20,783 nucleotides of DNA from a virus, in the UHGV virus genome UHGV-0270338; one strand, 5' to 3'. The notes beneath the pieces were generated by a model. That model saw nothing but the letters and a program-made list of their open reading frames with translations. It did not search any database and was not told the DNA's origin. Shown in pieces: positions 1 through 17,740 of this stretch. Both the position numbers and the translations under genes were made by a program. The first letter of the stretch is position 1, and every line of letters starts with the position of its first letter.

Positions 1-244
1 CTGATGTCCGGCGGTGCTTTTGCCGTTACGCACCACCCCGTCAGTAGCTGAACAGGAGGGACAGCTGATAGAAACAGAAGCCACTGGAGCACCTCAAAAA
101 CACCATCATACACTAAATCAGTAAGTTGGCAGCATCACCCCCTGATTGTGTTCCCTTCAATTGATCTATTATTTTTATCAGTTATTTAGTATGCTTACCT
201 TATCAATTAAAGTTTCATAATTACAAAATTGGGTCAGTATATAA

Positions 245-1336
245 ATGAATAAAAGAAAAACGCTTTTCAATATACAAGCACTAAGGTTTATTGCTGCAGC
301 CATGGTGGTTTTGGCACATGCCGAACTTGGACAATATGGCATTGGGAATATCGAAATCCTTGCATCTCTGGGAGGATTTGGCGTTATTATATTTTTCATA
401 ATTAGTGGGTTTATTATACCTTACGTAGCATATGGTGGCTCTCAATCAGAAGGAGAATTCAAAATATCTGCAGGGAACTTTTTTATGCGAAGAGTAATAA
501 GAATAATCCCGGTATATGCTTTAATTACCGCCCTTTGCGTTCTATCAGCCTTCATAGTAAAACATTATATATCTTCCCCAACTCCACCTATTGCTTATTG
601 GTGGCCCGAAACAAAAATCAGTCTTCAATGGTATCTTGAGAGTATTACATTTACTCACTGGCATCGCGATGCAATTCTAAGTATAGGTTGGACATTACAA
701 CTTGAATTTTTGTTTTATACTTCTTTTGCATTTTTTATTGCTATCAAATTATCAAGGTTAGAGTATATAGAGATCTTATTTTTAACTATATCCATAGTAG
801 CTAATATTTTAACTTATCAAAATAACAGCATCATATTCGAAATTCTTCCGTTCATGAAAACACTGGCAAGACCAGAAATGGTCGTATTTGCTATGGGTAT
901 GTTTATGTATCGATTATACTTACTGGGCGCTATGTTAAAAAAAACAATTGCGCTTACAATATTAATTTTGTTTATTCCCACATTCTTATTATGTGAATAC
1001 TTTAATATTACAACAAACATGGGGGGGGAATGGCATCGTCCTTTGATATGGGGGTTTTTCGCTTTTTATGGTGTCTGGGCAGCGTTGAGCCTTGAAGGTA
1101 AAATAAAACCGGCTAAACTTATTATTTTCCTCGGTGATGCTTCATATAGTATATATTTGACGCATGGTTTGATTACAGCTTGGGTATCATATATGTTTGT
1201 GTCTTTCGGACTTATTGATTATTCCAATGTATTTCTATATATTGGAATATACTTTATAATAAGTTGTGCGCTTGGCAGCGTCATTCATATGTACATAGAA
1301 AAACCCATCGCAGAATTTTTAAAACGTTTTGTTTGA
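245..1336 (+). CDS. Acyltransferase family 3 integral membrane protein (O-antigen/LPS O-acetyltransferase-like cargo gene)
   Basis: 363 aa; N-terminus LRFIAAAMVVLAHA typical of acyltransferase-3; multiple hydrophobic segments; strongly AT-rich relative to flanking prophage DNA; sits distal to the tail-fibre genes where serotype-conversion cargo genes usually sit. Confidence 0.7.
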   Translation: MNKRKTLFNIQALRFIAAAMVVLAHAELGQYGIGNIEILASLGGFGVIIFFIISGFIIPYVAYGGSQSEGEFKISAGNFFMRRVIRIIPVYALITALCVLSAFIVKHYISSPTPPIAYWWPETKISLQWYLESITFTHWHRDAILSIGWTLQLEFLFYTSFAFFIAIKLSRLEYIEILFLTISIVANILTYQNNSIIFEILPFMKTLARPEMVVFAMGMFMYRLYLLGAMLKKTIALTILILFIPTFLLCEYFNITTNMGGEWHRPLIWGFFAFYGVWAALSLEGKIKPAKLIIFLGDASYSIYLTHGLITAWVSYMFVSFGLIDYSNVFLYIGIYFIISCALGSVIHMYIEKPIAEFLKRFV

Positions 1337-1388
1337 CCAAATGGTCATAACTACCCCCCTTAAAATACGAAAGTAAATAATTAGAACA

Positions 1389-1417
1389 TGTGCTTTGAGT
1401 TAAACACTCAAAGCACA
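1389..1417 (-). terminator. Perfect 11-bp stem hairpin (tgtgctttgag / ctcaaagcaca), probable terminator in convergent intergenic region
   Basis: Inverted repeat read directly; the T-rich run is on the minus-strand side, so more likely terminates the Tfa transcript than the acyltransferase. Confidence 0.35.
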
Positions 1418-1564
1418 AAATAAAAAGCGCTGCCATTGTCTATTTTGCCCCTTCTCACGCTCGTTTTTTATTTTATAATAATACACCTCCAGTTACACTT
1501 TTGTAATTAAAAGCATGAATCATCAATTAGTTCATCCCTTAATCTAACTCTTCCCCAAACGTTC

Positions 1565-2152
1565 CTATTCTGGTTCGGTGGGCCAGTTGATATTTGGCGC
1601 AGATGAAGTATCTATAGCCTGAATGGCTTTTATGTACTGCACCCACGCAATCAGACTTTCCTTATCCCCATCACTGATGATGTCCAGTCGCAATTCTGTC
1701 TGCCAGAGACTTATTTTCTCCTGCGCTTCAGCCAGTAACGCAGCCTTCTTCTGTTCAGCGGCTTCTACCTCGGCAACGTGCTGCGCGTCAGTATCTGTTA
1801 CCCACTTTTTGCCGTCCCACTTTTGATATGGTCCTGATGGCGCAACAGTTGTGTACCCCTTCCTGACTGGGCCGATATAATCTATAGTGGAAGATGAGGT
1901 ATCATCGGTAGAATATACCGTTTCACCACGATGATCTTCATCCTGTCGCCATCCGGTGCCCGTGAACATAAAAACCTTTCCAGCAACCATTTCACCTGGA
2001 TCAACATCTGTTGAATTACCCGGCATACTGACGCCAGCGTTAATATATTCATCTGACCAGCCAGCATATTCCATGGTCACTGCATCGTAATAAAAACAAC
2101 GAATATCACCGGCCTGCGTTGCCAGACCATTTTCATCAAAGACAGGTTTCAT
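1565..2152 (-). CDS. Phage tail fibre assembly protein (Tfa)
   Basis: 195 aa; EDHRGETVY, YQKWDGKKWV and C-terminal DTSSAPNINWPTEPE motifs match the Tfa family; start overlaps tail fibre stop by 1 nt. Confidence 0.7.
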   Translation of the reverse strand: MKPVFDENGLATQAGDIRCFYYDAVTMEYAGWSDEYINAGVSMPGNSTDVDPGEMVAGKVFMFTGTGWRQDEDHRGETVYSTDDTSSSTIDYIGPVRKGYTTVAPSGPYQKWDGKKWVTDTDAQHVAEVEAAEQKKAALLAEAQEKISLWQTELRLDIISDGDKESLIAWVQYIKAIQAIDTSSAPNINWPTEPE

Positions 2153-3234
2153 TACTTTGCCCTCACCAAGAAATTGAATGCGATGTTGCGCGGTCGGTTC
2201 TCGTTTGCAATTGATACCGATGGGTCTTTTCCAGCGCTGAAGAGAATACTTTGAGCAACAGTGCTTCCGCCTGGCTGGAGGTTCGTTAAGTTTTGTGCCC
2301 CCCCAGAATAAAGCGCACCAGAATTTGTAGTATTCCCAAAATATTGAACAAAACCGACTTCACCAGTGATATTTCGGATGGCATCCACCTGAGTACTCAG
2401 CAATGCCCTTCCTGAATCGACCCCACGACCATCATCCCAGATACGCGGGAATTCGCCTCGAGCTTCGGGAAGTGTAAGTCCAGGGAACACCTGTGCAAGT
2501 TTGGGGTATACCGCAGCAGAAAATGACGCGCCGTTAAATTTTAAAAACACCATGTCAGACCATTCGCTTATGACCGTATTCGGCATTGCTGCGGAGGGCC
2601 AGAAGAATGGGACACCGATAGCTGGCGCACCAGACCCCATCCCCACATCTGCTGGCGTTGGCTTATATTTTTCAGAAAAGAGCTTATACTTCCAAATCGT
2701 AGTGTTGCCGGTTACAGCACGAATGATTGGTGTTGCTCCAGCAGAATTTACTAGCGGAAGATAAATCTGCACTCGTTGTTTTGATACGGAATCATACAAC
2801 AACGTTAGCACCATTCCGTAATCAATCCCAAAATCCGGGTCTGTATTACCGCCGTATGCATAAAAACCAGAACTTGTTGCGCTCGAAAGCAAGTTAATGT
2901 TAGAACCAGCGATATTTATACCGATACCCAGGTCCGTTAAATCAAGGTTTTCGAGAGCCGTTTTCACCGTGCCATCCGATTTGATATCGCCAAATGGATT
3001 TTTGCGGCTTAACAGCAGAGCACGAAGCGCGGTAAGCAGCTGGTCGTGCCGCTCCTTCTCCAGGCTGGCACCGGATGCCTCCACCACGCTGCAAAGCTCT
3101 TCCTGCAACATGTCAAAGTAGTCATCATCCAGATCGGTGGCTGGCGTGCCGGTCTGGGGGTTACCACGGGTAAAACCGTTCTTACCCGCGCCGAACTTAT
3201 CCTTCTGCGCGGTTTTCGTGTCTATACGATGCAT
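2152..3234 (-). CDS. Phage tail fibre protein
   Basis: 360 aa; conserved tail-fibre N-terminal region and C-terminal ...[18 protein letters not shown] typical of side tail fibre tips; immediately upstream of Tfa. Confidence 0.65.
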
Positions 3235-3237
3235 GGA

Positions 3238-3822
3238 TTACTCCGGATATTTAAAAATTACGTAGGTATGCGACGGGCAGAGTTTGTTAAGCACACATTC
3301 GACAACGGTGTCGCCCCAGATACGCAGTGCGGAATCACAGGGATCGCCACATGTCATCCAGGTGGTGTTGGTGGCGGCTGGCATGTTGATCTGCCAGTAA
3401 TACCGCCATTCCGGCGCATTCACCGCGTCAGTACAGGCCGATGAGCAGGTGAACGTGCTTTTGTCGTATCGCGTGATGGTGGCATCTGGTCTGCCCAGGG
3501 CAGCAAGCTGTGCAAGATAAAAATCCTCGTTGATGCCACCCGACAGGTTAACCTTCGCATCCAGCCGTTGCTGGCGCTGGCGAAGGGTCTGTGTCCCTGT
3601 AGGAATACATTCATCCGGCAGGCCGCACAGACACTCCCAGCGGTTTATCAGTTCGGTGGTGGTGCGCGGATCCAGCTCCCGCATCAGGGCATCCGCACGC
3701 TGATGAACACGGGTTAATGACGGTGCCGCACCGGCAATCGCCGGATCGCTGGCTGACCACGCCGGACCGGGCGGCAGCAGTGCCGACAACAGACGGATGT
3801 AATCATCGTTTGTCACGTCCAT
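3238..3822 (-). CDS. YmfQ-like phage tail protein (DUF2313-type)
   Basis: 194 aa; position between baseplate J-like fragment and tail fibre as in e14/Mu-like tail modules. Confidence 0.55.
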
Positions 3823-4208
3823 GAAATCGTCCCCAGAACCGCCAGTTCATTTTTTGCAATGGAGATATTGTCCGCCGGTGCAAGCAACTGATGGCTGTAT
3901 TCCCCGTTCGCACCGGAAATCGCCTCACTGATACGCGATACCTTCAGTTCTCCCTGCGGATAACCATCACGCAGCAGGAACGAACGCAACTCCGCGGTAA
4001 TGGCAGCCCGTATTTCCGGTGTGTCCGGCGTCACGCGGATATGAAAATCCACTTTATGCGCCACCGGCCTGAATACATACAAATCAGAGCCTGCCACCGG
4101 GGCCAGTGGCTCAATGTGTTGTCTTGCCGCCGTTTCCGTTGATTCTTCCGGAATGGGATTAATCAGGTCACTGCTGGCAATCATCACACCGACAGTCCCC
4201 GTTCCCAT
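3813..4208 (-). pseudogene. Baseplate J-like protein, C-terminal fragment only (5'-truncated)
   Basis: 131 aa ORF resembling only the C-terminal part of baseplate J proteins; no upstream baseplate, tube or sheath genes; the upstream space is occupied by opposite-strand genes. Confidence 0.45.
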
Positions 4209-4258
4209 CCAGTGGCGGTAACCGACCTTGCAGGGTCGATATGATGAGGAGCAGCAAA

Positions 4259-4622
4259 ATGGCTAGCGAACGCAGTACTGATGTGCAGGCATTTATCGGG
4301 GAGCTGGACGGCGGCGTATTTGAAACCAAAAATCGGCGCAGTTCTCAGTGAAGTCGCTTCCGGTGTGATGAACACGAAAACCAAAGGTAAGGTCTCGCTC
4401 AACCTAGAAATCGAACCGTTTGATGAGAACCGAGTGAAAATCAAACACAAACTCTCATATGTTCGCCCGACTAACCGCGGGAAAATTTCCGAAGAAGACA
4501 CCACCGAAACGCCGATGTATGTCAATCGCGGTGGTCGCCTGACTATTCTGCAGGAAGACCAGGGACAGTTGCTGACTCTTGCCGGTGAACCTGACGGAAA
4601 ACTCCGCGCAGCAGGTCGTTAA
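4259..4622 (+). pseudogene. yfdP: yfdP-like gene interrupted by a frameshift in an A5 tract
   Basis: ATG at 4259 with strong SD (gaggag) opens a frame that stops after 30 codons; the 4281..4622 ORF continues in the adjacent frame; deleting one A from aaaaa (4328..4332) fuses them into about 120 aa. Confidence 0.45.
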
Positions 4623-4687
4623 TATCGTTTTTAATTAACTGATTATTTATCTCATCACTGAATATCTTTATATAGTGAGGACTTATT

Positions 4688-5512
4688 ATGTCTCAGAACT
4701 TAGACGCAACCGCAATTAATCAAATCCATGCCCTTATTTCTGCTCAGGGTGTTAATGAAATTATCAGTAAGATTGGTGCCGATGCTGTGGCATTGCCTGA
4801 GAATTTCCGCATTCATGATCTGGAAAAATTTAATTTAAATCGCTTCCGTTTCCGTGGTGCGCTTTCCACTGCCAGCATCGATGATTTTACCCGTTATTCT
4901 AAAGATCTTGCAGATGAAGGCACCCGCTGCTTTATCGATGCTGATAATATGCGTGCCGTCAGTGTGCTTAACCTAGGTACTATTGATGAACCAGGTCACG
5001 CAGATAACACCGCCACACTCAAACTGAAAAAGACAGCACCGTTCTCTGCTCTGTTGTCTGTTAACGGCGAGCGTAACTCCCAGAAGTCACTAGCAGAATG
5101 GATTGAAGACTGGGCCGACTATCTTGTGGGCTTTGATGCTAATGGTGACGCTATTCAGGCAACAAAAGCGGCTGCGGCTGTCCGTAAAATCACGATTGAA
5201 GCAAACCAGACCGCTGATTTTGAAGATAATGACTTCAGCGGCAAACGCTCCCTGATGGAGTCTGTCGAAGCGAAGACCAAAGACATTATGCCAGTGGCAT
5301 TTGAATTTAAATGCGTTCCGTTTGAAGGTCTGAAAGAACGTCCGTTTAAATTACGCCTCAGTATTATCACTGGCGATCGTCCTGTACTGGTTCTGCGCAT
5401 TATTCAGCTGGAGGCGGTGCAGGAAGAAATGGCTAACGAATTTCGTGATCTGCTTGTTGAGAAATTCAAGGACAGCAAAGTAGAAACCTTTATTGGTACT
5501 TTCACCGCCTGA
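4688..5512 (+). CDS. yfdQ: YfdQ-like DUF2303 prophage protein
   Basis: 274 aa, same length as KplE1 (CPS-53) YfdQ as I recall it; followed by yfdR/S/T-like genes in the same order. Confidence 0.65.
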
Positions 5513-5639
5513 TTTCATTACTGCAAATGCCCCTGCGGGGGCATTTATGGAAACGTAATTTACTCAATAATCGCCGGATGGTGAGGGATTCTTTTTACCA
5601 GAATTCAGCGCGGTGCAGCGCATATACGTGGAGAACAAA

Positions 5640-6176
5640 ATGTCATTTATTAAAACTTTTTCCGGGAAGCATTTTTATTATGACAGGATAAATAAAGACG
5701 ACATCGATATTAACGATATCGCGGTTTCCCTTTCAAATATCTGTCGCTTTGCCGGTCATCTTTCGCACTTCTACAGCGTCGCCCAACATGCGGTTCTTTG
5801 CAGCCAGCTGGTGCCGCAGGAATTTGCTTTTGAAGCGTTAATGCATGATGCAACAGAAGCGTATTGCCAGGACATTCCCGCACCACTGAAACGCCTTCTT
5901 CCTGACTATAAACAAATGGAAGAAAAAATAGACGCCGTAATCCGTGAGAAATACGGGTTACCCCCAGTTATGAGTACGCCCGTGAAATATGCCGATCTCA
6001 TCATGCTGGCAACCGAACGCCGCGATCTCGGGCTTGATGATGGCTCTTTCTGGCCTGTACTGGAAGGTATCCCGGCAACAGAGATGTTCAACGTGATTCC
6101 ACTGGCACCGGGCCATGCCTACGGGATGTTTATGGAACGCTTTAACGAGTTATCGGAGTTACGCAAATGCGCATGA
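5640..6176 (+). CDS. yfdR: YfdR-like HD-domain phosphohydrolase (5'-deoxynucleotidase family)
   Basis: Start moved to ATG 5640 (SD ggaga 5 nt upstream) giving 178 aa; HD-type motifs (HFYSVAQHA, LMHDATEAY). Confidence 0.65.
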   Translation: MSFIKTFSGKHFYYDRINKDDIDINDIAVSLSNICRFAGHLSHFYSVAQHAVLCSQLVPQEFAFEALMHDATEAYCQDIPAPLKRLLPDYKQMEEKIDAVIREKYGLPPVMSTPVKYADLIMLATERRDLGLDDGSFWPVLEGIPATEMFNVIPLAPGHAYGMFMERFNELSELRKCA

Positions 6177-6529
6177 ATGTTTTCGAAATGGAAGGGTTTC
6201 TTCGTGGGAGATGTGTACCGCGAGATCTGAAAGTAAATGAAACAGATGCTGAATACCTGGTGCGTAAATTCGATGCGCTTGAAGCTAAATGTGCAGCACA
6301 GGAAAACAAAGTAATACCAGTGTCAACTGAACTGCCACCAGCAAATGAAAGTGTTTTGTTATTCGATGCTAACGGAGAAGGCTGGCTAATTGGCTGGCGT
6401 TCTCTCTGGTACACCTGGGGACAAAAAGAAACCGGAGAATGGCAGTGGACATTTCAGGTCGGGGACCTTGAAAACGTCAATATCACTCACTGGGCAGTAA
6501 TGCCAAAAGCACCGGAGGCTGGAGCATAA
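6167..6529 (+). CDS. yfdS: YfdS-like (DUF551) prophage protein
   Basis: 120 aa; synteny after yfdR-like; start overlaps yfdR stop. Confidence 0.5.
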   Translation: MRMNVFEMEGFLRGRCVPRDLKVNETDAEYLVRKFDALEAKCAAQENKVIPVSTELPPANESVLLFDANGEGWLIGWRSLWYTWGQKETGEWQWTFQVGDLENVNITHWAVMPKAPEAGA

Positions 6530-6834
6530 TGACCACTTTTACCGACAAAGAACTGATTAAAGAAATTAAAGAGCGTATCAGCAGCCTTGACGTGCGAGAC
6601 GATATTGAGCGCCGTGCTTATGAAATCGCACTCCTATCTCTGGAAGTAGAACCAGATGAACGCGAAGCTTATGAATTATTCATGGAAAAGCGTTTCGGTG
6701 ACTTAGTAGATCGTCGGAGAGCAAAAAACGGCAATAACGAATACATGGCATGGGATATGACTCTCGGTTGGATCGTCTGGCAGCAACGAGCTGGTATCCA
6801 TTTTTCAACAATGTCACAGCAAGAGGTGAAATAA
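6529..6834 (+). CDS. yfdT: YfdT-like prophage protein
   Basis: 101 aa; synteny; overlaps neighbours by 1 nt on each side. Confidence 0.45.
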   Translation: MTTFTDKELIKEIKERISSLDVRDDIERRAYEIALLSLEVEPDEREAYELFMEKRFGDLVDRRRAKNGNNEYMAWDMTLGWIVWQQRAGIHFSTMSQQEVK

Positions 6835-7184
6835 TGGAGCCATACAGCCTCACACTCGATGAGGCCTGTCATTTTCTCAAGATATCCAGACCGACTGCCA
6901 TTAACTGGATACGCACAGGGCGTCTTCAGGCAACACGCAAAGATCCCACTAAGAATAAATCTCCTTACCTCACAACACGACAAGCCTGCATTGCGGCTCT
7001 TCAGTCTCCGCTGCATACTGTCCAGGTGAGCGCGGGTGATGGCATAACAGAGGAAAGAAAATGTCACTCTTCCGCAGAGGTGAAATATGGTACGCCAGTT
7101 TCACATTGCCGAACGGTAAAAGATTTAAACAGTCTCTTGGAACAAAGGACAAAAGGCAGGCGACAGAACTCCATGACAAGCTAA
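6834..7184 (+). CDS. xis: Excisionase (Xis), P22-type
   Basis: 116 aa from ATG 6834 (SD gaggtg upstream; TAATG overlap with yfdT stop); HTH-like [26 protein letters not shown]; 3' end overlaps int start as in lambdoid int-xis modules. Confidence 0.6.
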
Positions 7185-8224
7185 AGGCTGAAGCATGGCG
7201 GGTCAGCAAACTTGGTGAAATACCTGATATAACGTTCGAGGAAGCGTGTGTCAGGTGGCTTGAAGAGAAAGCACATAAAAAATCACTGGACGATGACAAA
7301 AGCCGGATCGGATTCTGGCTTCAACATTTCGCAGGAATGCAACTAAGAGACATTACTGAATCAAAAATTTATTCAGCAATGCAGAAAATGACGAACCGGC
7401 GTCATGAGGAAAACTGGAAACTCAGGGCAGAAGCATGCAGAAAAAAAGGGAAACCTGTTCCAGAATACACGCCAAAACCAGCGTCCGTTGCAACGAAGGC
7501 TACGCATCTTTCATTTATAAAGGCCCTACTAAGAGCCGCAGAGCGTGAATGGAAAATGCTGGATAAGGCACCAATTATTAAAGTGCCTCAACCAAAGAAT
7601 AAACGGATCCGCTGGCTGGAGCCCCATGAAGCACAAAGGCTGATTGATGAATGTCCGGAGCCATTAAAGTCTGTTGTTGAATTTGCACTGGCAACAGGCT
7701 TAAGACGCTCGAACATCATCAACCTTGAATGGCAACAAATAGATATGCAGCGCCGGGTGGCATGGATAAACCCGGAAGAGAGTAAATCAAACCGCGCAAT
7801 TGGCGTTGCGCTGAATGATACTGCATGTCGCGTATTGAAAAAACAAATCGGGAATCATCACCGTTGGGTATTTGTGTACAAGGAAAGCTGTACCAAACCA
7901 GACGGAACGAAAGCGCCAACAGTAAGGAAGATGCGGTATGACGCAAACACAGCCTGGAAAGCGGCGCTGAGACGGGCTGGTATTGATGATTTCAGATTTC
8001 ACGACTTGAGACACACCTGGGCAAGTTGGCTGGTTCAAGCCGGAGTCCCGTTGTCAGTTTTACAGGAAATGGGAGGCTGGGAGTCTATCGAAATGGTTCG
8101 TCGATATGCTCACCTTGCACCTAATCACCTTACCGAACACGCACGGCAAATAGACTCGATCCTGAATCCATCGGTCCCAAATTTGTCCCAGTCAAGAAAT
8201 AAGGAAGGTACTAATGATGTGTAA
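7061..8224 (+). CDS. int: Tyrosine integrase, P22-family-like
   Basis: 387 aa; catalytic signature ATGLRRSN (R), FHDLRHTWA (HxxR), VRRYAHL (Y); stop codon 2 nt before the tRNA-Thr-derived att repeat. Confidence 0.85.
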
Positions 8225-8225
8225 C

Positions 8226-8257
8226 TTATTGATTTTAATGGTGCCGATAATAGGAGT
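8226..8257. repeat. att repeat: displaced copy of the tRNA-Thr 3' end (19 nt) plus 11 nt of downstream flank
   Basis: ttattgatttt-aa-tggtgccgataataggagt matches 20628..20662 (ttattgatttt-cttga-tggtgccgataataggagt); the 19-nt part is the reverse complement of the tRNA 3' end ACTCCTATTATCGGCACCA. Confidence 0.85.
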
Positions 8258-8343
8258 AAAACACTCGATTAATCTCGTGTTAATGCCATCACCTACGACC
8301 ATTACTAATTGATTGAATCTTATAGAAAAAATTATCATTTTCT

Positions 8344-9678
8344 ATGCGTTACAATCAATTTTCACATTACAAACGCTCCGACACTTTAGCCGGGGAGTTT
8401 ATGAGATACAAGCCCAATCAATACATAATCTGTGATTCTTACGGTAACTACTATTTACGGATCACGCTGCCTGTGTATATGCAGCCCTTTTTTGAAGGAA
8501 AAAGGACGTTTGTCAGGAGTCTGCACACAAGTAATCTTCGTGTTGCACGTAGAAAGCGTGATCAGATTGCAGATGAATACCATTGCTTACGGGAGAGTGT
8601 TGCCCCTGTAAACAGCACAATAGAGAACACGCTGGAACTGTTACGCAGTAAGGCTAAATACGCCAAAACAGCTACCAGAATGCAAGATACAGCGTCTTCG
8701 TGTCCGTCATTGCTTAAAATTCTTGAAATCTACCTGACAATTAACAGCACGAAGAAGAAGCCAGCCACTTTAGCTAAGGCAAGAAAAGCGGTAGAGATGT
8801 TTCTCTCCTACCGTAAAAAGCCTGATATTGCATTGCAAGATGTAAGCCGCACCACTGTTACAGGCTGGATTGAACACATGCAAAAAACCCTTTCACAACA
8901 ATCAATTGCAAATTATATCAGCCCAATGGCCCAGCTATGGGAGTTAGCTTCATCACGTTACCACGATGCGCCAGAAAGGGCGCTCTCCCCCTGGCGAGGG
9001 CATAGGCTTGATGTGGCACAAAGTAGAGAGAGCTACGAGGCATTTTCTAACAAAGAGCTATTGCAGGTGTTGCAAGTATTTTCCGGTAATTCAGCAGAAA
9101 ACAAAGAAATGATGGCTTTGTGTCTTATCGGTGCTTATACAGGTATGCGGATCAATGAGATAGCAAGTCTCACAATAGACGATGTGAAAGAGATCGAAGG
9201 TGTGCTGTGTTTTGAAATCACACAGGGAAAAACGAAAGCTGCGGCGCGTGTTGTGCCTGTACATAGCCTTATCACTCCGTTGGTGTTGTCGCTGCGTGAA
9301 AAGCCTCATAATGGCTTTTTGTTCTATCACGCCAGCATCACAGAACGTGCTGATGGTAAACGTTCCACGTGGCACACGCAGAGATTTACAAGAGCTAAAC
9401 GAAAGGCTTTAGGGGAAAAGGGAACAGAAAGGAAAGTGTTTCATTCTCTGAGACACGGAGTAGCACAGCTTCTTGATCGAAATCAAATTCCAGAAGACAG
9501 GATCGCCCTTCTCCTGGGCCATACACGCGGCAATACAGAGACATTCCGCACATATAGCAAGAATGCAGCTTCTCCAGTAGAGCTTAAAAAATATATTGAG
9601 CTTCTACGCTACCCTGAAATAGAGAAAGGCTTATCAATCAATAAAAAATCAAATTTAAGGCGTAAAACAACGCCATAG
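8344..9678 (+). CDS. Tyrosine integrase of the second element
   Basis: 444 aa (alternative start ATG 8401 with ggggag SD gives 425 aa); motifs TGMRINEIASL (R), FHSLRHGVAQLL (HxxR), LLGHTRGN...FRTYSK (H, Y); unrelated in sequence to the upstream int. Confidence 0.8.
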   Translation: MRYNQFSHYKRSDTLAGEFMRYKPNQYIICDSYGNYYLRITLPVYMQPFFEGKRTFVRSLHTSNLRVARRKRDQIADEYHCLRESVAPVNSTIENTLELLRSKAKYAKTATRMQDTASSCPSLLKILEIYLTINSTKKKPATLAKARKAVEMFLSYRKKPDIALQDVSRTTVTGWIEHMQKTLSQQSIANYISPMAQLWELASSRYHDAPERALSPWRGHRLDVAQSRESYEAFSNKELLQVLQVFSGNSAENKEMMALCLIGAYTGMRINEIASLTIDDVKEIEGVLCFEITQGKTKAAARVVPVHSLITPLVLSLREKPHNGFLFYHASITERADGKRSTWHTQRFTRAKRKALGEKGTERKVFHSLRHGVAQLLDRNQIPEDRIALLLGHTRGNTETFRTYSKNAASPVELKKYIELLRYPEIEKGLSINKKSNLRRKTTP

Positions 9679-9686
9679 ACGCAATA

Positions 9687-9720
9687 AAGAGGCTTCAACA
9701 TAGATTGGTAGCCTCTTTTA
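9687..9720. terminator. Bidirectional hairpin terminator between int2 and the convergent minus-strand operon
   Basis: aagaggct ... agcctctt 8-bp stem followed by tttta on plus strand and preceded by aataaa. Confidence 0.45.
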
Positions 9721-9759
9721 TAATTACATCGTTACAGAGCGTTTTAGAGGCATTTACGG

Positions 9760-10473
9760 CTATTCCTGTTTAAAGGCAGGAGTAATAGTGTCTTCACCTT
9801 CACTACTTGATTTTTCAGTGTTAACACGTTTTTTCATATTAGCCCCGATGTTCTTAGATGGCTGTGTTTTGATAGCTACAGTGTTTACAGTGCCATAAGA
9901 AACGAGCCTGATCTGCTCAAAGCTAAGATCAAATACTAGGGATTCGCTTGCCTCTTCTGTGTATTCGATGCCTGTTAAAACAACGTTCTCAAAAGTTTTA
10001 TTTTCTGTAACAAGAAGAAAAGGCTGTCTACTGTCCATAATCTGATTCAGATAATCAATCGCTAATGATCTTCTGTTCCCGTTCACCCCTGCACTCTTTA
10101 ACAAGCCAGGATCGCTTTTAATCGGTGTTTCAGTGATCCTTCCTTTAAGAGAAAACTTATTGTTTTTAATTTGAACGTGATCCGATACATTAGCACCATT
10201 TTCTACGGGGTAGCTTGTAACATCTGCCGAACGTCTCACGTTCACATCGTCAACACTGTCAAAGGCCAGTGCCATATAATTTTCATAAACGTCATTACCA
10301 GAAGATGCCAGCCCACTGGTAACAATAGCAAATCCATTTTCTCCTTTTGTTTTATTGGCTTTGCTATTTTCGTTTTTTGTAGAGTTTATATCTTGTTCTG
10401 CTTTGTAAACAGCCTGAACGTGTTGTTCTGGAGTATTTGCTGCACGTATGGTTAAAATCCCGGCGGTCGCCAT
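9760..10473 (-). CDS. Hypothetical protein, last gene of the structural-like operon
   Basis: 237 aa ORF, Ser/Thr/Asn-rich; no recognisable motif. Confidence 0.45.
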   Translation of the reverse strand: MATAGILTIRAANTPEQHVQAVYKAEQDINSTKNENSKANKTKGENGFAIVTSGLASSGNDVYENYMALAFDSVDDVNVRRSADVTSYPVENGANVSDHVQIKNNKFSLKGRITETPIKSDPGLLKSAGVNGNRRSLAIDYLNQIMDSRQPFLLVTENKTFENVVLTGIEYTEEASESLVFDLSFEQIRLVSYGTVNTVAIKTQPSKNIGANMKKRVNTEKSSSEGEDTITPAFKQE

Positions 10474-10506
10474 AATAATAATTTCCTTGTAATGTTATGG
10501 CGGGAA

Positions 10507-12345
10507 TTACCCGCCGTTGGATTGTCCTGATAAGCTGGTTAATGTTAATGATTTCAAGAAGCTATCCCGACTTGCTCTCGCTGTAAAATCCACATAATCG
10601 CTTAATCTGGATGTGTCAGAATTAATAGTAAGAGGAACTTCTGTTACCACTTCAAATGTAGGATTCAGATTAAACACAGGAGATAAATTATAAGCCGGAG
10701 TTGTCATTGCAAGATTATTTAAAGCACCCTGTTTGAGATTGGTTATCGGTGCTTCGCTGACTGACATTTTTACATCTGACACAGAAGAAGCATTATCATC
10801 GAAAAGCAATCCCTTAAGAGTGTTAAAGAAAGAATGACTATTATCAGGTGTAGTTGTTGCAGTGCCAGCGCCTTTATATTGGTCAGGAACGAGCTTAGAA
10901 AGATGCTGTTTCATCCCTTCATTGCTTAATGGCGGTGCATCTCCCATATTTTTCTGAATAGCATCTGTCTTATCATCATTACGATTAAACCAGTTTACAA
11001 TCTTCATAATGGCTTCAAAAAGACTTCCTGACGCTTCTCCTAGCCTTGTAAAATACGGAGTGAGATTAGAAAGGTTTTTCATAAACTCTTCCGTTACTTT
11101 TGGATCGAGAGATTTCATAAAGCCGTCTACGAATGCTACTTGTCTTGCATCAGAAAGCTGTGAAAGCTGTCTGTTTAGTTCTCTGAATTTAACAATAGAG
11201 TCTTGCTGTGTTTCTGTTAGCCATTTTCCAGAGGCTTTTTGCTGATTAATACTTTCTTGTACATCTTTAACGGAACGTTGCCAATATTTTGACGTAAGCA
11301 TCAAATCATCGCCCAGGTCTTCTAAACGTTGTCCAATTTGGGAGTCTGAAAACCCTTTTTTCATCATTCCATTAACAGCCTTAGAAATTAATCCGGCTGG
11401 ATTATCAGCAAATTTTTTAAGGTCGCTCTTGTTAATAACACCGATGTTTAGAAGTTCATTAATAGCGTTATCACCGCCTTTCCATTCGCCGCCTTTACCA
11501 GTTTTTTTATCGACTACATATTCAGCTTCACTATAGGATTTTGCGGCACGTTCCCTAACATCTTTCATCTGATCCAGGTATTTCCTAGCCCCTTGATCAC
11601 CCATCATAGAGTCAACGCCGTTTCTATAGGCCCATTCTGTAATGTTGTACATCTGGTTAACGTCTACACCGCCAAGCCTTGCACGTTGAATTAGCTCACC
11701 TTGTGTCTCTGCGTTAGCGAAACTGTTACTAACAAACTCCGACGCTTTACTAACAGCCATCACGCCAGCAGCCGCTGTAGCGCCTCCAAATAACAGAGCA
11801 CCCATCGTGGCGGAATTCCCTGATCCTCCTCCCTTAACGGGGGCTAATTGAGCTTTTCTGTTGCCATTAATCTTACGTTGTTGCTGTTGTAGGCGTTTCA
11901 TCTGACTATTCATACGTGCAAGCGAGATAGCCCCTTGCTCATATTGTTTTGCTATCTCTCTAGCCTGTGCAATAGCTTTGTATTGTTCCGCTACAGAGAG
12001 GCGGTGCATTGCACTGATAGAGCTTGACACATCAAGGAGTTTTAATTCTGCTTTCTCTTTACGTGCTGCTATTTGTTGCTGTTGCCTTGCCTGTGCTCTT
12101 GCTGCGGCAGCTTGTGCTCTTTGATTTTGTTTTTCGGTTTTAGCTTTCTGTTGAGCAATCTTATCTACTTCACTTTGTGCTTTCTTATAGCCTTTAGTGA
12201 CATTATCAAACCTTAATTTAGCGGGCTTGATGTTTTCTGCGAATTCCTTTAAGCCTGTAATAGAGTCTTTCGCTTTTTTCAAGCTGTCTTTATCTACACT
12301 AAATGTTACTGTGTTCTTAATTTTAGAAGTGTTAATTTCTAACAT
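10507..12345 (-). CDS. Coiled-coil protein with Gly/Ala-rich hydrophobic segment (tape-measure-like or scaffold-like)
   Basis: 612 aa; N-terminal Q/A/K/R-rich helical region (AQAAAARAQARQQQQIAARKEKAELK), then GGGSGNSATMGALLFGGATAAAGVMAV; no Walker A or other catalytic motif seen. Confidence 0.5.
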   Translation of the reverse strand: MLEINTSKIKNTVTFSVDKDSLKKAKDSITGLKEFAENIKPAKLRFDNVTKGYKKAQSEVDKIAQQKAKTEKQNQRAQAAAARAQARQQQQIAARKEKAELKLLDVSSSISAMHRLSVAEQYKAIAQAREIAKQYEQGAISLARMNSQMKRLQQQQRKINGNRKAQLAPVKGGGSGNSATMGALLFGGATAAAGVMAVSKASEFVSNSFANAETQGELIQRARLGGVDVNQMYNITEWAYRNGVDSMMGDQGARKYLDQMKDVRERAAKSYSEAEYVVDKKTGKGGEWKGGDNAINELLNIGVINKSDLKKFADNPAGLISKAVNGMMKKGFSDSQIGQRLEDLGDDLMLTSKYWQRSVKDVQESINQQKASGKWLTETQQDSIVKFRELNRQLSQLSDARQVAFVDGFMKSLDPKVTEEFMKNLSNLTPYFTRLGEASGSLFEAIMKIVNWFNRNDDKTDAIQKNMGDAPPLSNEGMKQHLSKLVPDQYKGAGTATTTPDNSHSFFNTLKGLLFDDNASSVSDVKMSVSEAPITNLKQGALNNLAMTTPAYNLSPVFNLNPTFEVVTEVPLTINSDTSRLSDYVDFTARASRDSFLKSLTLTSLSGQSNGG

Positions 12346-12359
12346 TTAAAATCCCCTTA

Positions 12360-12563
12360 TTAATCATTTTTACCACCTTCTTTACTTAAGAAATGGTGTA
12401 GAGCCTGATCAATACTCTCGTTTAGTCTGAACATACGGGCTTTTACTCCTTCATATGGAACATCTAAGAGAGAACATAGATATTTCAGATTTAACAAGCC
12501 TCTTGAATCATTAGCATCTAAATGTACGTGTACACCATTTTTTGATTTCAAAATCACTTCCAT
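12360..12563 (-). CDS. Hypothetical small protein
   Basis: 67 aa; SD gaggtga upstream of ATG; directly follows an internal terminator. Confidence 0.4.
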   Translation of the reverse strand: MEVILKSKNGVHVHLDANDSRGLLNLKYLCSLLDVPYEGVKARMFRLNESIDQALHHFLSKEGGKND

Positions 12564-12587
12564 ATTTTAATCACCTCTCAAAATTTA

Positions 12588-12632
12588 AAAAATAAATAAA
12601 AAAAAGGCGAAGCGTGAATACACGCCACGCCT
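12588..12632 (-). terminator. Rho-independent terminator immediately after the capsid-like gene
   Basis: Minus-strand RNA forms aggcguggcgug-uauu-cacgcuucgccu followed by an 8-U run (plus-strand A-run 12590..12604). Confidence 0.6.
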
Positions 12633-12649
12633 CTATTACACGTTAAATA

Positions 12650-13678
12650 TTATTTAACAGTGATTTGAACGGAGAAGCCTACACCGTGGTTTACAACCAT
12701 CTGGCTATTCTCTGTAACAACGTTAACAGCATCACCACGAGAAGATTCATAGCTATAGCTGTACACCTCAGCAGGAGCGGCATTAATCAGTTCAAAGGTG
12801 CTGGAAGCAGCCCCGTAGATGTTCTGATATACATTAGAGCCTTTAGCAAACTTCGGAACCGCTACAGCGTCTGCGGTCATATGTGCAAGGTGTAGCGGAT
12901 CTACCAGTTTAATAACATCAATGTTAGTTCCTGGAATAGTGAACGCTGTCACCCCCGGTAGCAGGTCACGACGCTGGTACACAACATTTCCCTCTTCCAG
13001 TGGGCTTACATACTGGAATGCGTTTGCCATACCCGCAGAGAATCGAATTGCAGAGAAGGCTTCCGGCTTACAGAAAACAACAATACGCTCTACAGCAGCC
13101 GCCTGGCTTTGTGCTTTCTCGATAATGTCAGTAGCAATCTGATCAAATTCTTTAAAAATCTTCGTGGTGTCAGTGCTGGAGGCGTTAACAGTGGCTTTCA
13201 TAGGTGTCACATTAAACAGCTTGCCCCACTCGATAAGAACATCATCAGTTTTCGGGGTGTAGGTGCGACCACTAAACAGAGAAGCAGCCAATACGCTCTC
13301 TTTTGTACGCTGATACGCTACGTGGTGTTTAGCAACATAGTCAGCATAGATATCAGTGAGTGTTTCCTGAAAATCAGTGCCAGGCTTACGCTTGCCTTGC
13401 ACGTCCTGCGGTTTGATCAGGTCTTGCCTTAAAAAGTACGGGATTTCAATAAGATATTCTTTACCTTGTTCTCGCTTAGTAACGTTGTGTTCAGAAGAGA
13501 AACGAGAGGTTTCTTTGTTGAACAGAGATTCGTTGCTTTCGACAAGCTGGGAAACAGCTACTTTATGAGATGTAACCCCTACAGAATCCGTAAAATCAAG
13601 AGTAGAGAGCAGATAGTTTCTAGTGCTATGAGCCTGGAAAAGCGGAGCTAAATCAACGTAATCATTACCTAGAATCAT
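12650..13678 (-). CDS. Putative HK97-fold major capsid-like protein
   Basis: 342 aa; segment RIVVFCKPEAFSAI...MANAFQYVSPLEEGN resembles, from memory, the conserved region of podovirus T7 gp10-type capsid proteins; followed by a strong terminator as is typical for a major structural gene; no signal peptide. Confidence 0.45.
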   Translation of the reverse strand: MILGNDYVDLAPLFQAHSTRNYLLSTLDFTDSVGVTSHKVAVSQLVESNESLFNKETSRFSSEHNVTKREQGKEYLIEIPYFLRQDLIKPQDVQGKRKPGTDFQETLTDIYADYVAKHHVAYQRTKESVLAASLFSGRTYTPKTDDVLIEWGKLFNVTPMKATVNASSTDTTKIFKEFDQIATDIIEKAQSQAAAVERIVVFCKPEAFSAIRFSAGMANAFQYVSPLEEGNVVYQRRDLLPGVTAFTIPGTNIDVIKLVDPLHLAHMTADAVAVPKFAKGSNVYQNIYGAASSTFELINAAPAEVYSYSYESSRGDAVNVVTENSQMVVNHGVGFSVQITVK

Positions 13679-13696
13679 TTATTATTATTCCTTTTA

Positions 13697-14059
13697 TTAA
13701 GAAGTGAAAACAGAGTGGAACCCTTCAAGCTGGAAGCCTTTTTTAATTAATGCTGTTTTTGCTGCTTCACTTACAGCATTCAGCGCATCAGCTTTGATGC
13801 AGACAAGGCCAGCATTGCTACGTAGCACATCTACAGGCTTGTTGTCTCCAGCCGTTAAAAACTCACTCATAACAACATAGATATCATCTCCTGATACATA
13901 TTTAGCGCCAGTGCTGGTGATCAAGTCGCCGCATTCAACATCAGCAGGAAGAGAAGCAAAAACCTTGCTTTCTACAGAGGCAAACGGATCAGTACAATAA
14001 CTTACAATATCTGTGAAAGTCTTTCGAACTGGAAATAGAGTGTCTAAATCAATAATCAT
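13697..14059 (-). CDS. Hypothetical protein (possible head accessory, decoration or scaffold protein)
   Basis: 120 aa; immediately upstream of the capsid-like gene, start overlaps stop of preceding ORF. Confidence 0.35.
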   Translation of the reverse strand: MIIDLDTLFPVRKTFTDIVSYCTDPFASVESKVFASLPADVECGDLITSTGAKYVSGDDIYVVMSEFLTAGDNKPVDVLRSNAGLVCIKADALNAVSEAAKTALIKKGFQLEGFHSVFTS

Positions 14060-14268
14060 TTAGTAATCTCCTTAGCTTTTAATTTGATTAATTCATTAAG
14101 GGAAGGTGTAGACGGAGAAGAAGGAGAAAAATATTTTTCAACACAACGTTCCACTTCTTCGACAGAACACCCAGCGTATTTAGCTACCATTTCGGTAATT
14201 TGTGGATTGATCTTTAGCATTTCATCGCGATACTTGATGATTTGCTCTTTATCATTTAAAAACAACAT
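14056..14268 (-). CDS. Hypothetical small protein, first gene of operon B
   Basis: 70 aa; translationally coupled (ATGA overlap) with the next gene. Confidence 0.35.
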   Translation of the reverse strand: MLFLNDKEQIIKYRDEMLKINPQITEMVAKYAGCSVEEVERCVEKYFSPSSPSTPSLNELIKLKAKEITK

Positions 14269-14303
14269 TTATATAAACCTTGTTACCTTGTTTAAAGTAA
14301 GAA

Positions 14304-14323
14304 ATACAACTTTTAAGTTGTAT
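14304..14323. promoter_or_regulatory. Perfect palindrome ATACAACTT-TT-AAGTTGTAT, candidate operator at the operon B promoter
   Basis: 9-bp inverted repeat with 2-bp spacer between the upstream terminator and the first ORF of operon B. Confidence 0.4.
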
Positions 14324-14335
14324 AACGGGCAAAAT

Positions 14336-14365
14336 AAAAGGCAGCATTTAGAGCCGCCTTTTATT
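14336..14365. terminator. Bidirectional hairpin terminator separating operon A from operon B
   Basis: aaaaggcagc-atttaga-gccgcctttt, flanked by A-run and T-run. Confidence 0.5.
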
Positions 14366-14392
14366 AACTTGTACCTATGTAATTACCCTATG

Positions 14393-14420
14393 TTATGCAT
14401 ACTCCAAGATGTATGCATAA
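14393..14420. promoter_or_regulatory. Two copies of palindromic octamer TATGCATA (ttatgcatac ... gtatgcataa), candidate operator
   Basis: Inverted pair of 10-mers, each containing a self-complementary TATGCATA. Confidence 0.35.
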
Positions 14421-14611
14421 CAAAGGAAAAAAGAGGTAATAATGACACTTAAGGAGGAGGAGAAGCGGGGAGCGGAGATTTTACTCCCCTTTAACGACAA
14501 GAAGAATTTTTAATATCGAACCAATAAAGGAAAAATAATCACCCTATATAATTATATTAACATACAATAGATGAAATGTCAAGATATTTTACAACTTTTT
14601 TGTTGCTTTTT

Positions 14612-14974
14612 TTATTCTTCTGTGATAACGGCTAAGCGTTGAGCGAGTTCGATAAGGCCATCTCCCACATAGCGAACATCAGATTCAATATCTTCTATCC
14701 AGTTTGATAGCTCCCATATCTGATCGGCTGTCAGGTATGCGTTCTCACGCTTACAGAGCATCTCTACACGCTTAGAGAGGTGCTCAAAGGCATTTACAGC
14801 TAAATCCCAGTGTTTAAACGCCTCATTAAGTGCCGCTGGCGTATTTTCTTTATATGCATCAAGTTCAGCGCGGTTTAAAGGCAGGAGGTAATCATCCTCA
14901 TAATAATTAATTAGTGAGTAAATTGTATCATACGTGTTTTTGTTCATATTAAAAGTCTCCATAGTGATCATCAT
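14612..14974 (-). CDS. Hypothetical helical protein
   Basis: 120 aa ORF; likely true start at internal ATG (MNKNTYD..., ggag 9 nt upstream). Confidence 0.4.
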   Translation of the reverse strand: MMITMETFNMNKNTYDTIYSLINYYEDDYLLPLNRAELDAYKENTPAALNEAFKHWDLAVNAFEHLSKRVEMLCKRENAYLTADQIWELSNWIEDIESDVRYVGDGLIELAQRLAVITEE

Positions 14975-15356
14975 TATCTAAATGGAATTCAGGAACTAAA
15001 TTATTTAGGCCATTGGTGGCGAGATAACCAACGTAGTGGTTATAGTCTTCAAATCCTAAAATCTGGTATTTGCGTAAATCAGAGCTGTCAACGATATACT
15101 CTTTTCTTTTTCTAGGTTTCCAGAACACGCCAGGTGTTGAAGATAAGATTTCTTGTAATGCGATATATTCATCTCCACAAGGCACAGAGGGAGAATGTTC
15201 TATGATCTCTGTTTTCCATTCGCCAGGGGCGCTATTTTGCTTGGAGAGCGTAACTAGCTCTTTAAAGTCTTTGCGTCTTAGAATAGATTTAGGTTTACTT
15301 AGAAGAGAAGCTGAATCACCGATTTTCTTAACAACGTTGTTTTTTCTTTTTGCCAT
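14949..15356 (-). CDS. Hypothetical protein with basic N-terminus and acidic C-terminus
   Basis: 135 aa; MAKRKNNVVKK N-terminus; ends ...HLDNDDHYGDF. Confidence 0.4.
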   Translation of the reverse strand: MAKRKNNVVKKIGDSASLLSKPKSILRRKDFKELVTLSKQNSAPGEWKTEIIEHSPSVPCGDEYIALQEILSSTPGVFWKPRKRKEYIVDSSDLRKYQILGFEDYNHYVGYLATNGLNNLVPEFHLDNDDHYGDF

Positions 15357-15485
15357 TTATTTTTCCTTTTCTTTTAAAGGAAAACACCCCGAAGTATGTT
15401 TCTAACGTGAGAAAGAACAATAACCAATACATAGCTACTATCATAATAATGTTTTCCTTTTATATTTTAATTACATAGAGAGATT

Positions 15486-15761
15486 TTAGAGAGTGGAATA
15501 GATGAATTCTACTTTACCCAGTCTTTTGAGATTGAATGTAGAGAAAGATAATTCTTTAATCTCTATAACACCGAAATTTGATAGCTGTCTAAGCCAGAAT
15601 TTTAAACCATCTTCAGAGCAAGCTGCTCGATGTAACACATCGCTATATTTTAGCGGTGTTGGCTTTCCTTTATAGAGGTAAGCAAGTGTCTCGTAGATGC
15701 GTTTTCCTGTGTCATTACACTGAATTCTGTCTACTTGATTTTTTACTAAATATTGAATCAT
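15486..15761 (-). CDS. Hypothetical small protein
   Basis: 91 aa ORF in operon A. Confidence 0.4.
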   Translation of the reverse strand: MIQYLVKNQVDRIQCNDTGKRIYETLAYLYKGKPTPLKYSDVLHRAACSEDGLKFWLRQLSNFGVIEIKELSFSTFNLKRLGKVEFIYSTL

Positions 15762-15772
15762 AACCCTCCTTA

Positions 15773-16429
15773 TTAAAATGGAATATCAAAGTCATCATAC
15801 ACATTTGGGTAATGCTTAGAAAAATATGCCTCAATACCATTTGGTAGCTTTAACCTGTGCTTATAGGCTAACGATGTTGCAAATTCTATAAATGATGCTC
15901 CTCCTGTTCTTTTGTCTTTCTTCTGGATGATAAGAGAGGCAAAATTCTCTAACACATCCTCCTCATTATCATTAGCTACCTTTTCACTTGATGAAACAGG
16001 TGTTTCTTCCGTCTCCCACGGTAAAGGCGTATCCCAATCATCATCAAGAACATCAAAAGAAGACTCTTTATTATCTTCCGTAGGGGGAAGCTGATCAGGA
16101 ACAGCTTTAACAGTAGCTTCTTGTTGTGTCTGGGCTTCTTGTCTAGCTTCTTCTTGTGGAATATCTACCACTTGATAGACATTAGAACTTCCTGGTCGTG
16201 CATCTTTTATAATTAATCCCATTTCGAGCAATTTCTTAACCCTTTCCTCTGCTGCTCTTGGTGTTATGCCAAAAACATCGCCTATCTTAGCGTAAGAGGG
16301 AAATGCACGATCAAACCCTTTCAGATAGCAGTAAAGGTTTTTAGCACTATCTGTAAATTTATGCCCGTTTACTTGGCTTATTTTTAGAATCCACATAGGA
16401 ACTTTTACAAATTGTTCTTCATTAATCAT
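15773..16429 (-). CDS. Winged-helix DNA-binding protein with acidic linker and SSB-C-terminal-tip-like tail (candidate replication initiator / host replisome recruiter)
   Basis: 218 aa; N-terminal HTH-like segment (FPSYAKIGDVFGITPRAAEERVKKLLEMGLI); long D/E/Q-rich linker; C-terminus ...YDDFDIPF, close to the E. coli SSB tip DDDIPF. Confidence 0.55.
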   Translation of the reverse strand: MINEEQFVKVPMWILKISQVNGHKFTDSAKNLYCYLKGFDRAFPSYAKIGDVFGITPRAAEERVKKLLEMGLIIKDARPGSSNVYQVVDIPQEEARQEAQTQQEATVKAVPDQLPPTEDNKESSFDVLDDDWDTPLPWETEETPVSSSEKVANDNEEDVLENFASLIIQKKDKRTGGASFIEFATSLAYKHRLKLPNGIEAYFSKHYPNVYDDFDIPF

Positions 16430-16480
16430 TAAAAATCTCCTTATAAATCACGCTTAATGCGCTACTAAAGTGAATGAGGA

Positions 16481-16648
16481 TCACTTACCCTTTTTTTGTT
16501 TGATGTTCTCTGCTGCTTCAGTAATGATTTCTAACATCAAATCACTGACCATAATTTGCCTTTTCTTGGCTTCAGCAAATAAAACCTTGAAGATTTCAGG
16601 GTCAACGTGTAGGTAAGTGCGCGGAATTGGTTTCTTAGTTTCGCTCAT
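16481..16648 (-). CDS. Ribbon-helix-helix (RHH) DNA-binding protein
   Basis: 55 aa from ATG 16648 with excellent SD (aagaggaggag); beta-strand RTYLHV followed by two helices (PEIFKVLFAEAKKRQ, MVSDLMLEIITEA) typical of Arc/CopG/Omega fold. Confidence 0.55.
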   Translation of the reverse strand: MSETKKPIPRTYLHVDPEIFKVLFAEAKKRQIMVSDLMLEIITEAAENIKQKKGK

Positions 16649-16670
16649 AGTTTTCTCCTCCTCTTGTCTA

Positions 16671-16853
16671 TTATTCTTTCTCTGCTTCTTTCTTACGCAG
16701 TTCATCAATAATTTTCAGTGCATCGTCAAAACATTTTTCACGCTCTGGATAACCTCGACTCCTTGCCATATTACGGTTCATTACTACTTGGTGGCGTGTA
16801 AGCTCACCTTTTTTAAATGCCTGGACGACGTGCTCAGATGTAAACCATTTCAT
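16671..16853 (-). CDS. Small hypothetical protein, first gene of operon A (possible regulator or directionality factor)
   Basis: 60 aa; SD aaggag upstream; immediately upstream of the RHH gene. Confidence 0.4.
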   Translation of the reverse strand: MKWFTSEHVVQAFKKGELTRHQVVMNRNMARSRGYPEREKCFDDALKIIDELRKKEAEKE

Positions 16854-17616
16854 AAAAAACTCCTTATTCAGTTAAAAGAAATAAAACACCTTGCAAGCCT
16901 GACGGCTTCAAAGTGCATTGATTTTGATTATTTAGAGAAGAATGTTTTTCTGTCCCTCTAATACCTATTATTACATATAAAGAAACATTTGTCAATACCT
17001 TTTCATAAAAAATCTGATCTTTTTCATGCACTTACATTTTTTCTTAGCTATTCGTGCTCTTCTGTGTAGTGCTATTCTTCATTATCCGCTAAAACGCTCT
17101 AAAACGCGTTCTAACGAGATTTTGATAAAAGCAATACATTGCCTTATCTAATGGCTGTTTAGCTCGCCAGAGGCTTATTTAAGGGGCTTATTTTGTATTT
17201 GTTAGGTATATGAAAAGGTAATGGTAAATATAAAACAGAGAGTCACTTTATAAAACGCTCTGTAAAGACCTGTAGTGAGCTTATTATATGTAGGCAATGC
17301 GTTTCCATTCCCTACCCTGCTTAATGCTGTTAGAGAAGCATTTAGACCCCTTATTTTTAATTACCTAAAGTATCCTCTATACATCTCTGTTATGAAACAC
17401 CTCTGAATCCTTCATAAAACACATTATGACGCAAAGAACACTTTTCTAAGGTGATTCCCTTCCTGAACTCTGTTTCTTGCGTCAGAGAGCTACAGAGAGC
17501 TTATAAAGCTATTATTAATAATAAAGTAGATAAAGTAAGTAAGATAACTAAGATAGATAAGATTAATAAGATCAGAATTCTCTTTCGGTGTCGCCTCTGG
17601 CTTTTCCACCGAAAAC

Positions 17617-17740
17617 AATTACACGACTACAGAATGTGGAAGTGGAATTGTATTGAGGCTTAGTGAAATTACACGAGGAAAGCAGAGTGTAATTGAGCTT
17701 TAGCCGCTCTCTCTTCGAGTAATTACACAACTACAGAGAA
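17617..17740. repeat. Array of AATTACAC-containing repeats, including palindrome AATTACAC-N12-GTGTAATT (17667..17694)
   Basis: aattacacgactacaga (17617) and aattacacaactacaga (17721) are near-identical 17-mers; perfect 8-bp inverted repeat between them. Confidence 0.5.

Follow-up and report, generated by a model that had tools for sequence, protein, structure and literature searches.

An ordinary IS1 end at a contig break, upstream of a predicted acyltransferase in the cargo slot of an SfV-like prophage remnant of Escherichia coli

IS1 (IS1A/IS1B-type) is a 768-bp insertion sequence of E. coli and Shigella, and Tn9 is a composite transposon of the form IS1-cat-IS1, with cat as the cargo of the two IS1 copies. 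The cat gene of the vector pACYC184 derives from Tn9 (PMC4574204). Shigella phage SfV carries cargo of another kind, gtrV-gtrB-gtrA, next to attP, with int on the far side; serotype-conversion genes adjoin int-attP in phages of this group, and the site is the classical O-antigen-modification locus (PMC3851460). Shigella phage Sf6, which uses argW, likewise carries Oac, an O-antigen O-acetyltransferase of the AT3 family, by int/attP. The DNA that we analysed, UHGV virus genome UHGV-0270338 (20,783 nt; the whole of this stretch is called the window here), touches on all of these systems. A preliminary description had noted that its first ~140 bp appear identical to the segment upstream of cat in Tn9 and pACYC184, with an unrelated acyltransferase following where Tn9 has cat, and had suggested either a recurrent point of cargo insertion or a contig end that is chimeric or derived from a vector. 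The features at this end of the window are as follows.

1..84, minus strand: first 28 codons of insA, with a GTG start at 84..82, covering the first half of the InsA zinc ribbon (from translation)
105..132, minus strand: promoter-like site pointing into IS1, CTGCCA-16-TATGAT (consensus scan)
117..139, minus strand: left terminal inverted repeat (IRL) of IS1, 23 bp, GGTGATGCTGCCAACTTACTGAT, with 0 mismatches (0.00 expected by chance)
140..148, plus strand: flank abutting the IRL, CCCTGATTG, which, had this been the first insertion site of IS1, would represent the 9-bp target copy; IS1-free relatives read GGCACAA followed by CCCTGATTG
140..244, plus strand: AT-rich leader of the acyltransferase gene, 105 bp, 27% GC, native to the cargo cassette and identical in loci L003, L004, L006, L007 and L008
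245..1336, plus strand: membrane acyltransferase, Acyl_transf_3 (AT3; OafA/ExoZ/Oac-type), 363 aa, 34% GC (Pfam PF01757, E 8e-26)

Window 1..139, read on the minus strand, is 100% identical to IS1 nt 1-139, the left (insA-proximal) end of the element, and is truncated by the start of the window, which is also the contig start. As in the described element, the 23-bp IRL is exact and insA starts at nt 56; the copy in the window differs in being limited to the first 139 of the 768 bp. The IRL GGTGATGCTGCCAACTTACTGAT has a single match in the whole window at up to 3 mismatches, and the promoter-like site at 105..132, which lies partly within it, is placed where we take the known insA promoter of IS1 to sit. 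A search with bases 1..139 returned 100% matches in phages and plasmids; the IS1 copies of phage P1 and of SfIV are among them, at E about 1e-66, and so are upwards of 5000 plasmid records labelled "IS1-like element IS1A family transposase".

For comparison we used related loci (numbered with an L); the window's junction was located among them by looking up contigs that encode the exact 363-aa acyltransferase protein. Relatives that are free of IS1 read ...GGCACAA directly followed by CCCTGATTGTG... across the junction, and homology between them and the window stops exactly between bases 139 and 140, which is the element boundary. One locus, L005, comes from a complete E. coli chromosome (GCA_052767485.1) and is 100.000% identical to window 1..11336 (11,336 nt); at the window's junction it has a complete 768-bp IS1, with IRR at 9128..9150, IRL at 9873..9895 and the InsA and InsB' frames intact. 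The full InsA of L005 matches Pfam Zn_ribbon_InsA and HTH_Tnp_IS1, and its InsB' matches DDE_Tnp_IS1. The left side of this IS1 lies outside the window and is therefore read from L005, which is another assembly, identical over the shared 11.3 kb. Bases 1..139 belong to a chromosomal IS1 copy, of which they form the left end, with the inverted repeat, the insA promoter and the start of insA.

The match to Tn9 and pACYC184 arises because Tn9 is built as IS1-cat-IS1 and the cat fragment of the vector retains IS1 nt 1-142. We represented pACYC184 by two stand-ins, R100, which has a Tn9-like IS1-catA1 region, and the vector-type cat plasmid pFL129. When the reverse complement of window 1..170 is aligned with both, identity covers IS1 nt 1-139 and one flanking G, and beyond window base 140 the flanks of the window and of R100 and pFL129 differ. 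This alignment bears out the identity of the first ~140 bp and the end of the match at about base 140, with the refinement that the true boundary lies between 139 and 140 and that the agreement at base 140 is a chance match. We also used as a query a 95-nt cat-upstream/IS1 junction, which R100, pHCM1 (of S. Typhi CT18) and no fewer than 677 plasmids contain at 100%. R100 has this junction between catA1 and an IS1 transposase gene; about 223 bp separate the start of catA1 from IS1 nt 1, and insA and cat are divergent.

The two loci thus have in common the same IS1 left end and a geometry in which the IRL faces the 5' side of a divergent acyl- or acetyltransferase gene, the two genes being unrelated. 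By contrast, the gene here encodes a membrane AT3 acyltransferase and not CatA1, its spacer of 105 bp is shorter than the one of about 223 bp in R100 and unrelated to it in sequence, and the second IS1 of Tn9 is absent. Were the local geometry to reflect a Tn9-like composite transposon, flanking IS1 copies would mobilise the acyltransferase as they do cat in Tn9. We consider this highly improbable, since there is one IS1 end only in the 20,783-nt window and one IS1 within the 21-kb locus of L005, since IS1-free relatives at both thrW and argW hold the same gene with the same flanks, and since the cassette reaches about 90 bp past the IS1 junction, where its left edge meets the remnant of a DNA-invertase gene. 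A Tn9-type transposon was accordingly rejected as a candidate: two bracketing IS1 copies were not found, and the gene at 245..1336 matches Pfam Acyl_transf_3 only, not catA1.

The suggestion of a vector-derived end had drawn on the apparent start of the window exactly at the boundary of the pACYC184 segment. That start is close to the boundary but does not coincide with it: the window begins at IS1 nt 139, whereas the IS1 homology of pFL129 ends 3 nt away, at ...CATCAGCGC, a HaeII site at IS1 nt 142, after which vector DNA follows. If bases 1..139 came from a pACYC184-type vector, with its IS1 fragment beside cat, and had been misjoined to prophage DNA, both this closeness and the identity of the segment to that of the vector would be explained. 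In vectors and in Tn9, however, the IS1 terminus is flanked by ...GTGCGTCG, the cat upstream region, and a vector fragment would show the cat upstream sequence ...GCGCAAAGTGCGTCG outside the IRL; the flank in the window is instead prophage DNA, which has 1 base in common with that sequence and begins exactly at the IS1 terminus, as in real transposition. Furthermore, a pACYC184-type fragment stops at HaeII (nt 142) and abuts vector DNA, whereas the L005 locus runs on through a full-length IS1, and the identical junction is found not only in this complete chromosome with its 768-bp IS1 but in at least three other independent assemblies. L009, L010 and L011 show this junction too, their contigs ending after 127, 53 and 52 nt of IS1, and L012 and L013 begin 2-3 nt after it. 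Contigs break inside IS1 because it is a multi-copy repeat.

The other end of the window also lies 141 nt inside an ambiguous stretch, which points to ordinary breaks in the assembly graph: the last 141 nt (20643..20783; thrW and DNA downstream) are exactly the part common to thrW alleles that lack a second island. The 20,611-nt length of L010 fits about 86 nt less than the window at both ends. At the left end the corresponding stretch is 139 nt of IS1 plus 1. We infer that both window ends are branch points of a de Bruijn graph built with a k near 141; for L010, k would be about 55. The closeness of 139 to 142 is uncomfortable, but is probably a coincidence that is explained by k=141 being close to 142. 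A vector-derived or chimeric contig end is ruled out by the full IS1 that a complete chromosome has at this very junction and by independent assemblies that break inside IS1, and we give a vector origin next to no credence. The exact 34-mer spanning the IS1/prophage junction had 0 matches in GTDB representative genomes and IMG/VR viral contigs; a megablast search with the window found no copy of the junction in complete E. coli RefSeq genomes, six of which have the module free of IS1.

This part of the result is genuine but unremarkable: an ordinary IS1 end at a contig break induced by a repeat. Its value lies in clearing up the record, since the striking match to vectors is to a piece of IS1 that came into them with Tn9 DNA, and signals neither contamination nor a new point of cargo insertion in phages. 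Nor does the match mark a recurrent cargo-insertion point, as had been suggested; the shared segment is an IS1 end, found in thousands of plasmids and chromosomes, and the cargo did not come with IS1. The locus does have a cargo slot, namely the known gtr/oac (O-antigen-modification) slot of SfV-like phages, which is not implied by the IS1 match.

The acyltransferase itself has homologues named acyltransferase family protein, OafA/YrhL or ExoZ in their source records, and its nearest relatives outside E. coli are from Morganella and Proteus, at 57-60% identity. No NCBIfam model matches it. A tblastn search of 50,697 phage records gave no close homologue, with no match to Sf6 Oac, OacB or a Shigella phage. 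It resembles the Oac of Sf6 in belonging to the same Pfam family and in having the same kind of position, but it is a distant AT3 member without detectable similarity to phage Oac. We predict that the protein is a surface-polysaccharide O-acetyltransferase. The otherwise AT-rich coding sequence contains a run of eight G at window 1021..1028; the run has this length in all 12 loci (12/12), a set biased against variants by its retrieval through exact protein identity, and shows no sign of slipped-strand variation.

Downstream of the acyltransferase the window has the following features of the prophage remnant and its attachment site.

1389..1417, minus strand: terminator-like hairpin between the convergent acyltransferase and tail-fibre-assembly genes (consensus scan)
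1565..2152, minus strand: tail fibre assembly protein (Pfam Caudo_TAP, E 5e-33)
2152..3234, minus strand: tail fibre protein, named StfP or phage tail protein in relatives; the N-terminal part is SfV-like, and the C-terminal part falls in the cassette common to the argW prophages
3238..3822, minus strand: Mu gp48-like baseplate protein (Pfam Phage_Mu_Gp48)
3813..4208, minus strand: C-terminal fragment of baseplate J (Pfam Baseplate_J, profile positions 158-255 only)
7061..8224, plus strand: SfV-type integrase at the thrW-proximal end of the remnant (Pfam Phage_integrase; the int regions of SfV, SfIV and SfII match it at 98-99.6% DNA identity)
20644..20719, minus strand: tRNA-Thr (CGU), thrW, the attachment site (ARAGORN)

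Window 2939..8257 matches Shigella phage SfV at 98.4% identity in two pieces, which in SfV flank gtrV-gtrB-gtrA and attP; within the tail fibre gene, identity to SfV starts at about window 2939. The integrase, early and baseplate genes are 98-99% identical to those of SfV, and the tRNA-Thr attachment site is the same. The SfV-type int adjoins thrW/proA in L006, L007, L008 and L011, and in the IS1-free loci L006 and L007 a 48-bp att repeat derived from thrW occurs twice, 1.7 kb upstream of the acyltransferase and once more beyond int. This region is a heavily deleted and decayed SfV-like prophage at thrW, and the acyltransferase is its cargo (a moron). The tail genes, on the minus strand, have 51% GC, against 34% for the acyltransferase.

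Comparison with SfV shows that the predicted acyltransferase occupies the position that gtrA-gtrB-gtrV have in that phage, with the tail-fibre-assembly gene on one side and attP/int on the other. As in SfV, the cargo is convergent with the tail-fibre-assembly gene and a terminator-like hairpin lies between the two; in SfV a terminator is annotated at the corresponding point, between gtrV and the tail-fibre-assembly gene orf22. The locus differs from SfV in that its cargo is one AT3 acyltransferase, with a predicted role in O-antigen modification, rather than gtrABV, in that most of the prophage has been deleted, and in that the cassette adjoins the remnant of a Pin-like invertase gene. The fragment of baseplate J, which ends at 4208, is directly followed by early-region genes of the YfdP, YfdQ (DUF2303) and YfdR type (3813..4600), a large internal deletion; from this direct join it follows that almost all morphogenesis, lysis and regulatory genes are gone.

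The order in which cargo and IS1 arrived can be read from the related loci. L003, L004, L006 and L007 have no IS1 in the region, and L008 has one 121 bp further upstream; between base 140 and the ATG all five (5/5) agree with the window at every position, and they read ...GGCACAA directly before CCCTGATTG. Because IS1-free relatives hold the same gene, identical upstream as far as base 140, the cargo is older than the IS1. In L005 the flanks of IS1 are CATTATGTT and CCCTGATTG, and there is no 9-bp target duplication. In strain GF4, which is free of IS1, the left flank, CATTATGTT, falls within a DUF262 gene, beside a HEPN nuclease gene and paoD, and on a map of the L006 type the two junction points are 10,957 bp apart (positions compared: L005 9128..9895 with its flanks, L016 15990 and L006 1..9895). 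The missing DNA, about 11 kb, takes in the remainder of the DUF262 gene, a gene for a DNA methyltransferase, the prophage copy of attR and a P4-like island, the last with genes for PerC, a ProQ-like protein, a primase and a truncated integrase. Given the missing target duplication and junction points about 11 kb apart, IS1 marks a deletion.

We propose that IS1 landed upstream of the acyltransferase after the cargo was already present, and that either an adjacent deletion promoted by IS1 or recombination between two directly repeated IS1 copies would then have removed the attR copy and the neighbouring P4-like island, joining the acyltransferase leader to the truncated DUF262 gene. One or other of these events is the simplest and most likely cause of the deletion. 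The absence of a target duplication is expected after such a deletion or recombination, and does not count against the identification as IS1. We are highly confident in the combined explanation: an IS1 end at a repeat-induced break, upstream of a moron acyltransferase in the SfV slot, with IS1 arriving later than the cargo and marking a deletion.

A further question is whether IS1 was selected here for changing expression of the acyltransferase, either by relieving the silencing of AT-rich DNA or by uncoupling the gene from upstream control, as at bgl and acrEF (for the activation of acrEF by IS1, PMC4574204 cites its reference 26). Two independent IS1 insertions in the same orientation lie within 121 bp of each other upstream of the gene, at -105 in the window lineage and at -226 in L008, and gene and leader are AT-rich (27-34% GC), both of which favour such a role. 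These are two events only, however, and IS1 prefers AT-rich targets, a preference that alone explains the clustering; IS1 also interrupts tail-fibre genes of related prophages. Moreover, a consensus scan for a hybrid promoter found no promoter-like site across the IS1 junction, the outward TTGGCA in the IRL being followed at 16-18 nt by GTGTTC, TGTTCC or GTTCCC. A regulatory role for IS1 at this locus is possible but unsupported, and we think selection for altered expression unlikely. It is similarly doubtful that the IS1 insertions and the 11-kb deletion (attR, the P4-like island and the DUF262/HEPN/methylase defence cluster) were together selected for fixing the cargo and changing the expression of a silenced gene; if they were, the locus would represent IS1-driven domestication of a serotype-conversion gene in E. 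coli.

The preferred reading, in which IS1 arrived after the cargo, brings with it two modest by-products: an uncharacterised AT3 acyltransferase in the gtr/oac slot of an E. coli SfV-like remnant, with the same cassette at argW, and a locus remodelled by IS1 through deletion. From base 140 on, the cassette is found at 99% identity beside intS at argW in E. coli C7, C3, ERP001 and others, a position that corresponds to yfdGHI of K-12 CPS-53. L003 (C7) and L004 (ERP001) have the module of acyltransferase, tail-fibre-assembly and tail-fibre genes from 8001 onward; ERP001 has a different baseplate set, and its identity to the window ends at window 3009. Because of the argW copies and the baseplate switch in ERP001, we conclude that the module moves between unrelated prophage backbones and attachment sites.

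The left edge of the cassette has a history of its own. In IS1-free relatives it abuts the C-terminal remnant of a Pin-like invertase gene (L003 7694..8105, L004 7694..8105, L006 9555..9805), which ends about 90 bp to the left of the window junction, and in LR-06 (L017 1189..1443) the invertase gene is intact and neighbours an invertible segment of tail-fibre DNA. Half of this segment, together with most of the invertase gene, seems to have given way to the cassette, a replacement that would lock the orientation of the tail fibre. The IS1 end of L008 (GCA_003301875.1; 1..230), which is independent of that in the window, sits inside the remnant of the invertase gene, with IS1 followed directly by CGTTCGCTC at its junction. 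IS1 also interrupts or abuts tail-fibre genes of related prophages with Mu-type baseplates in several complete E. coli genomes, for example in LR-06 (L017 3387..4084), and the tail-fibre part of these prophages seems to be a frequent target of IS1.

Between the SfV-type int and the tRNA gene, at window 8344..20640, lies a second integrative element, in tandem at thrW, with the following genes.

8344..9678: integrase of the DUF6538 type
9760..10473: Dit-like protein
10507..12345: 612-aa protein

This second element is missing from L006, L007, L008 and L011; related E. coli loci match it at about 95% identity and are annotated with major capsid and baseplate proteins.
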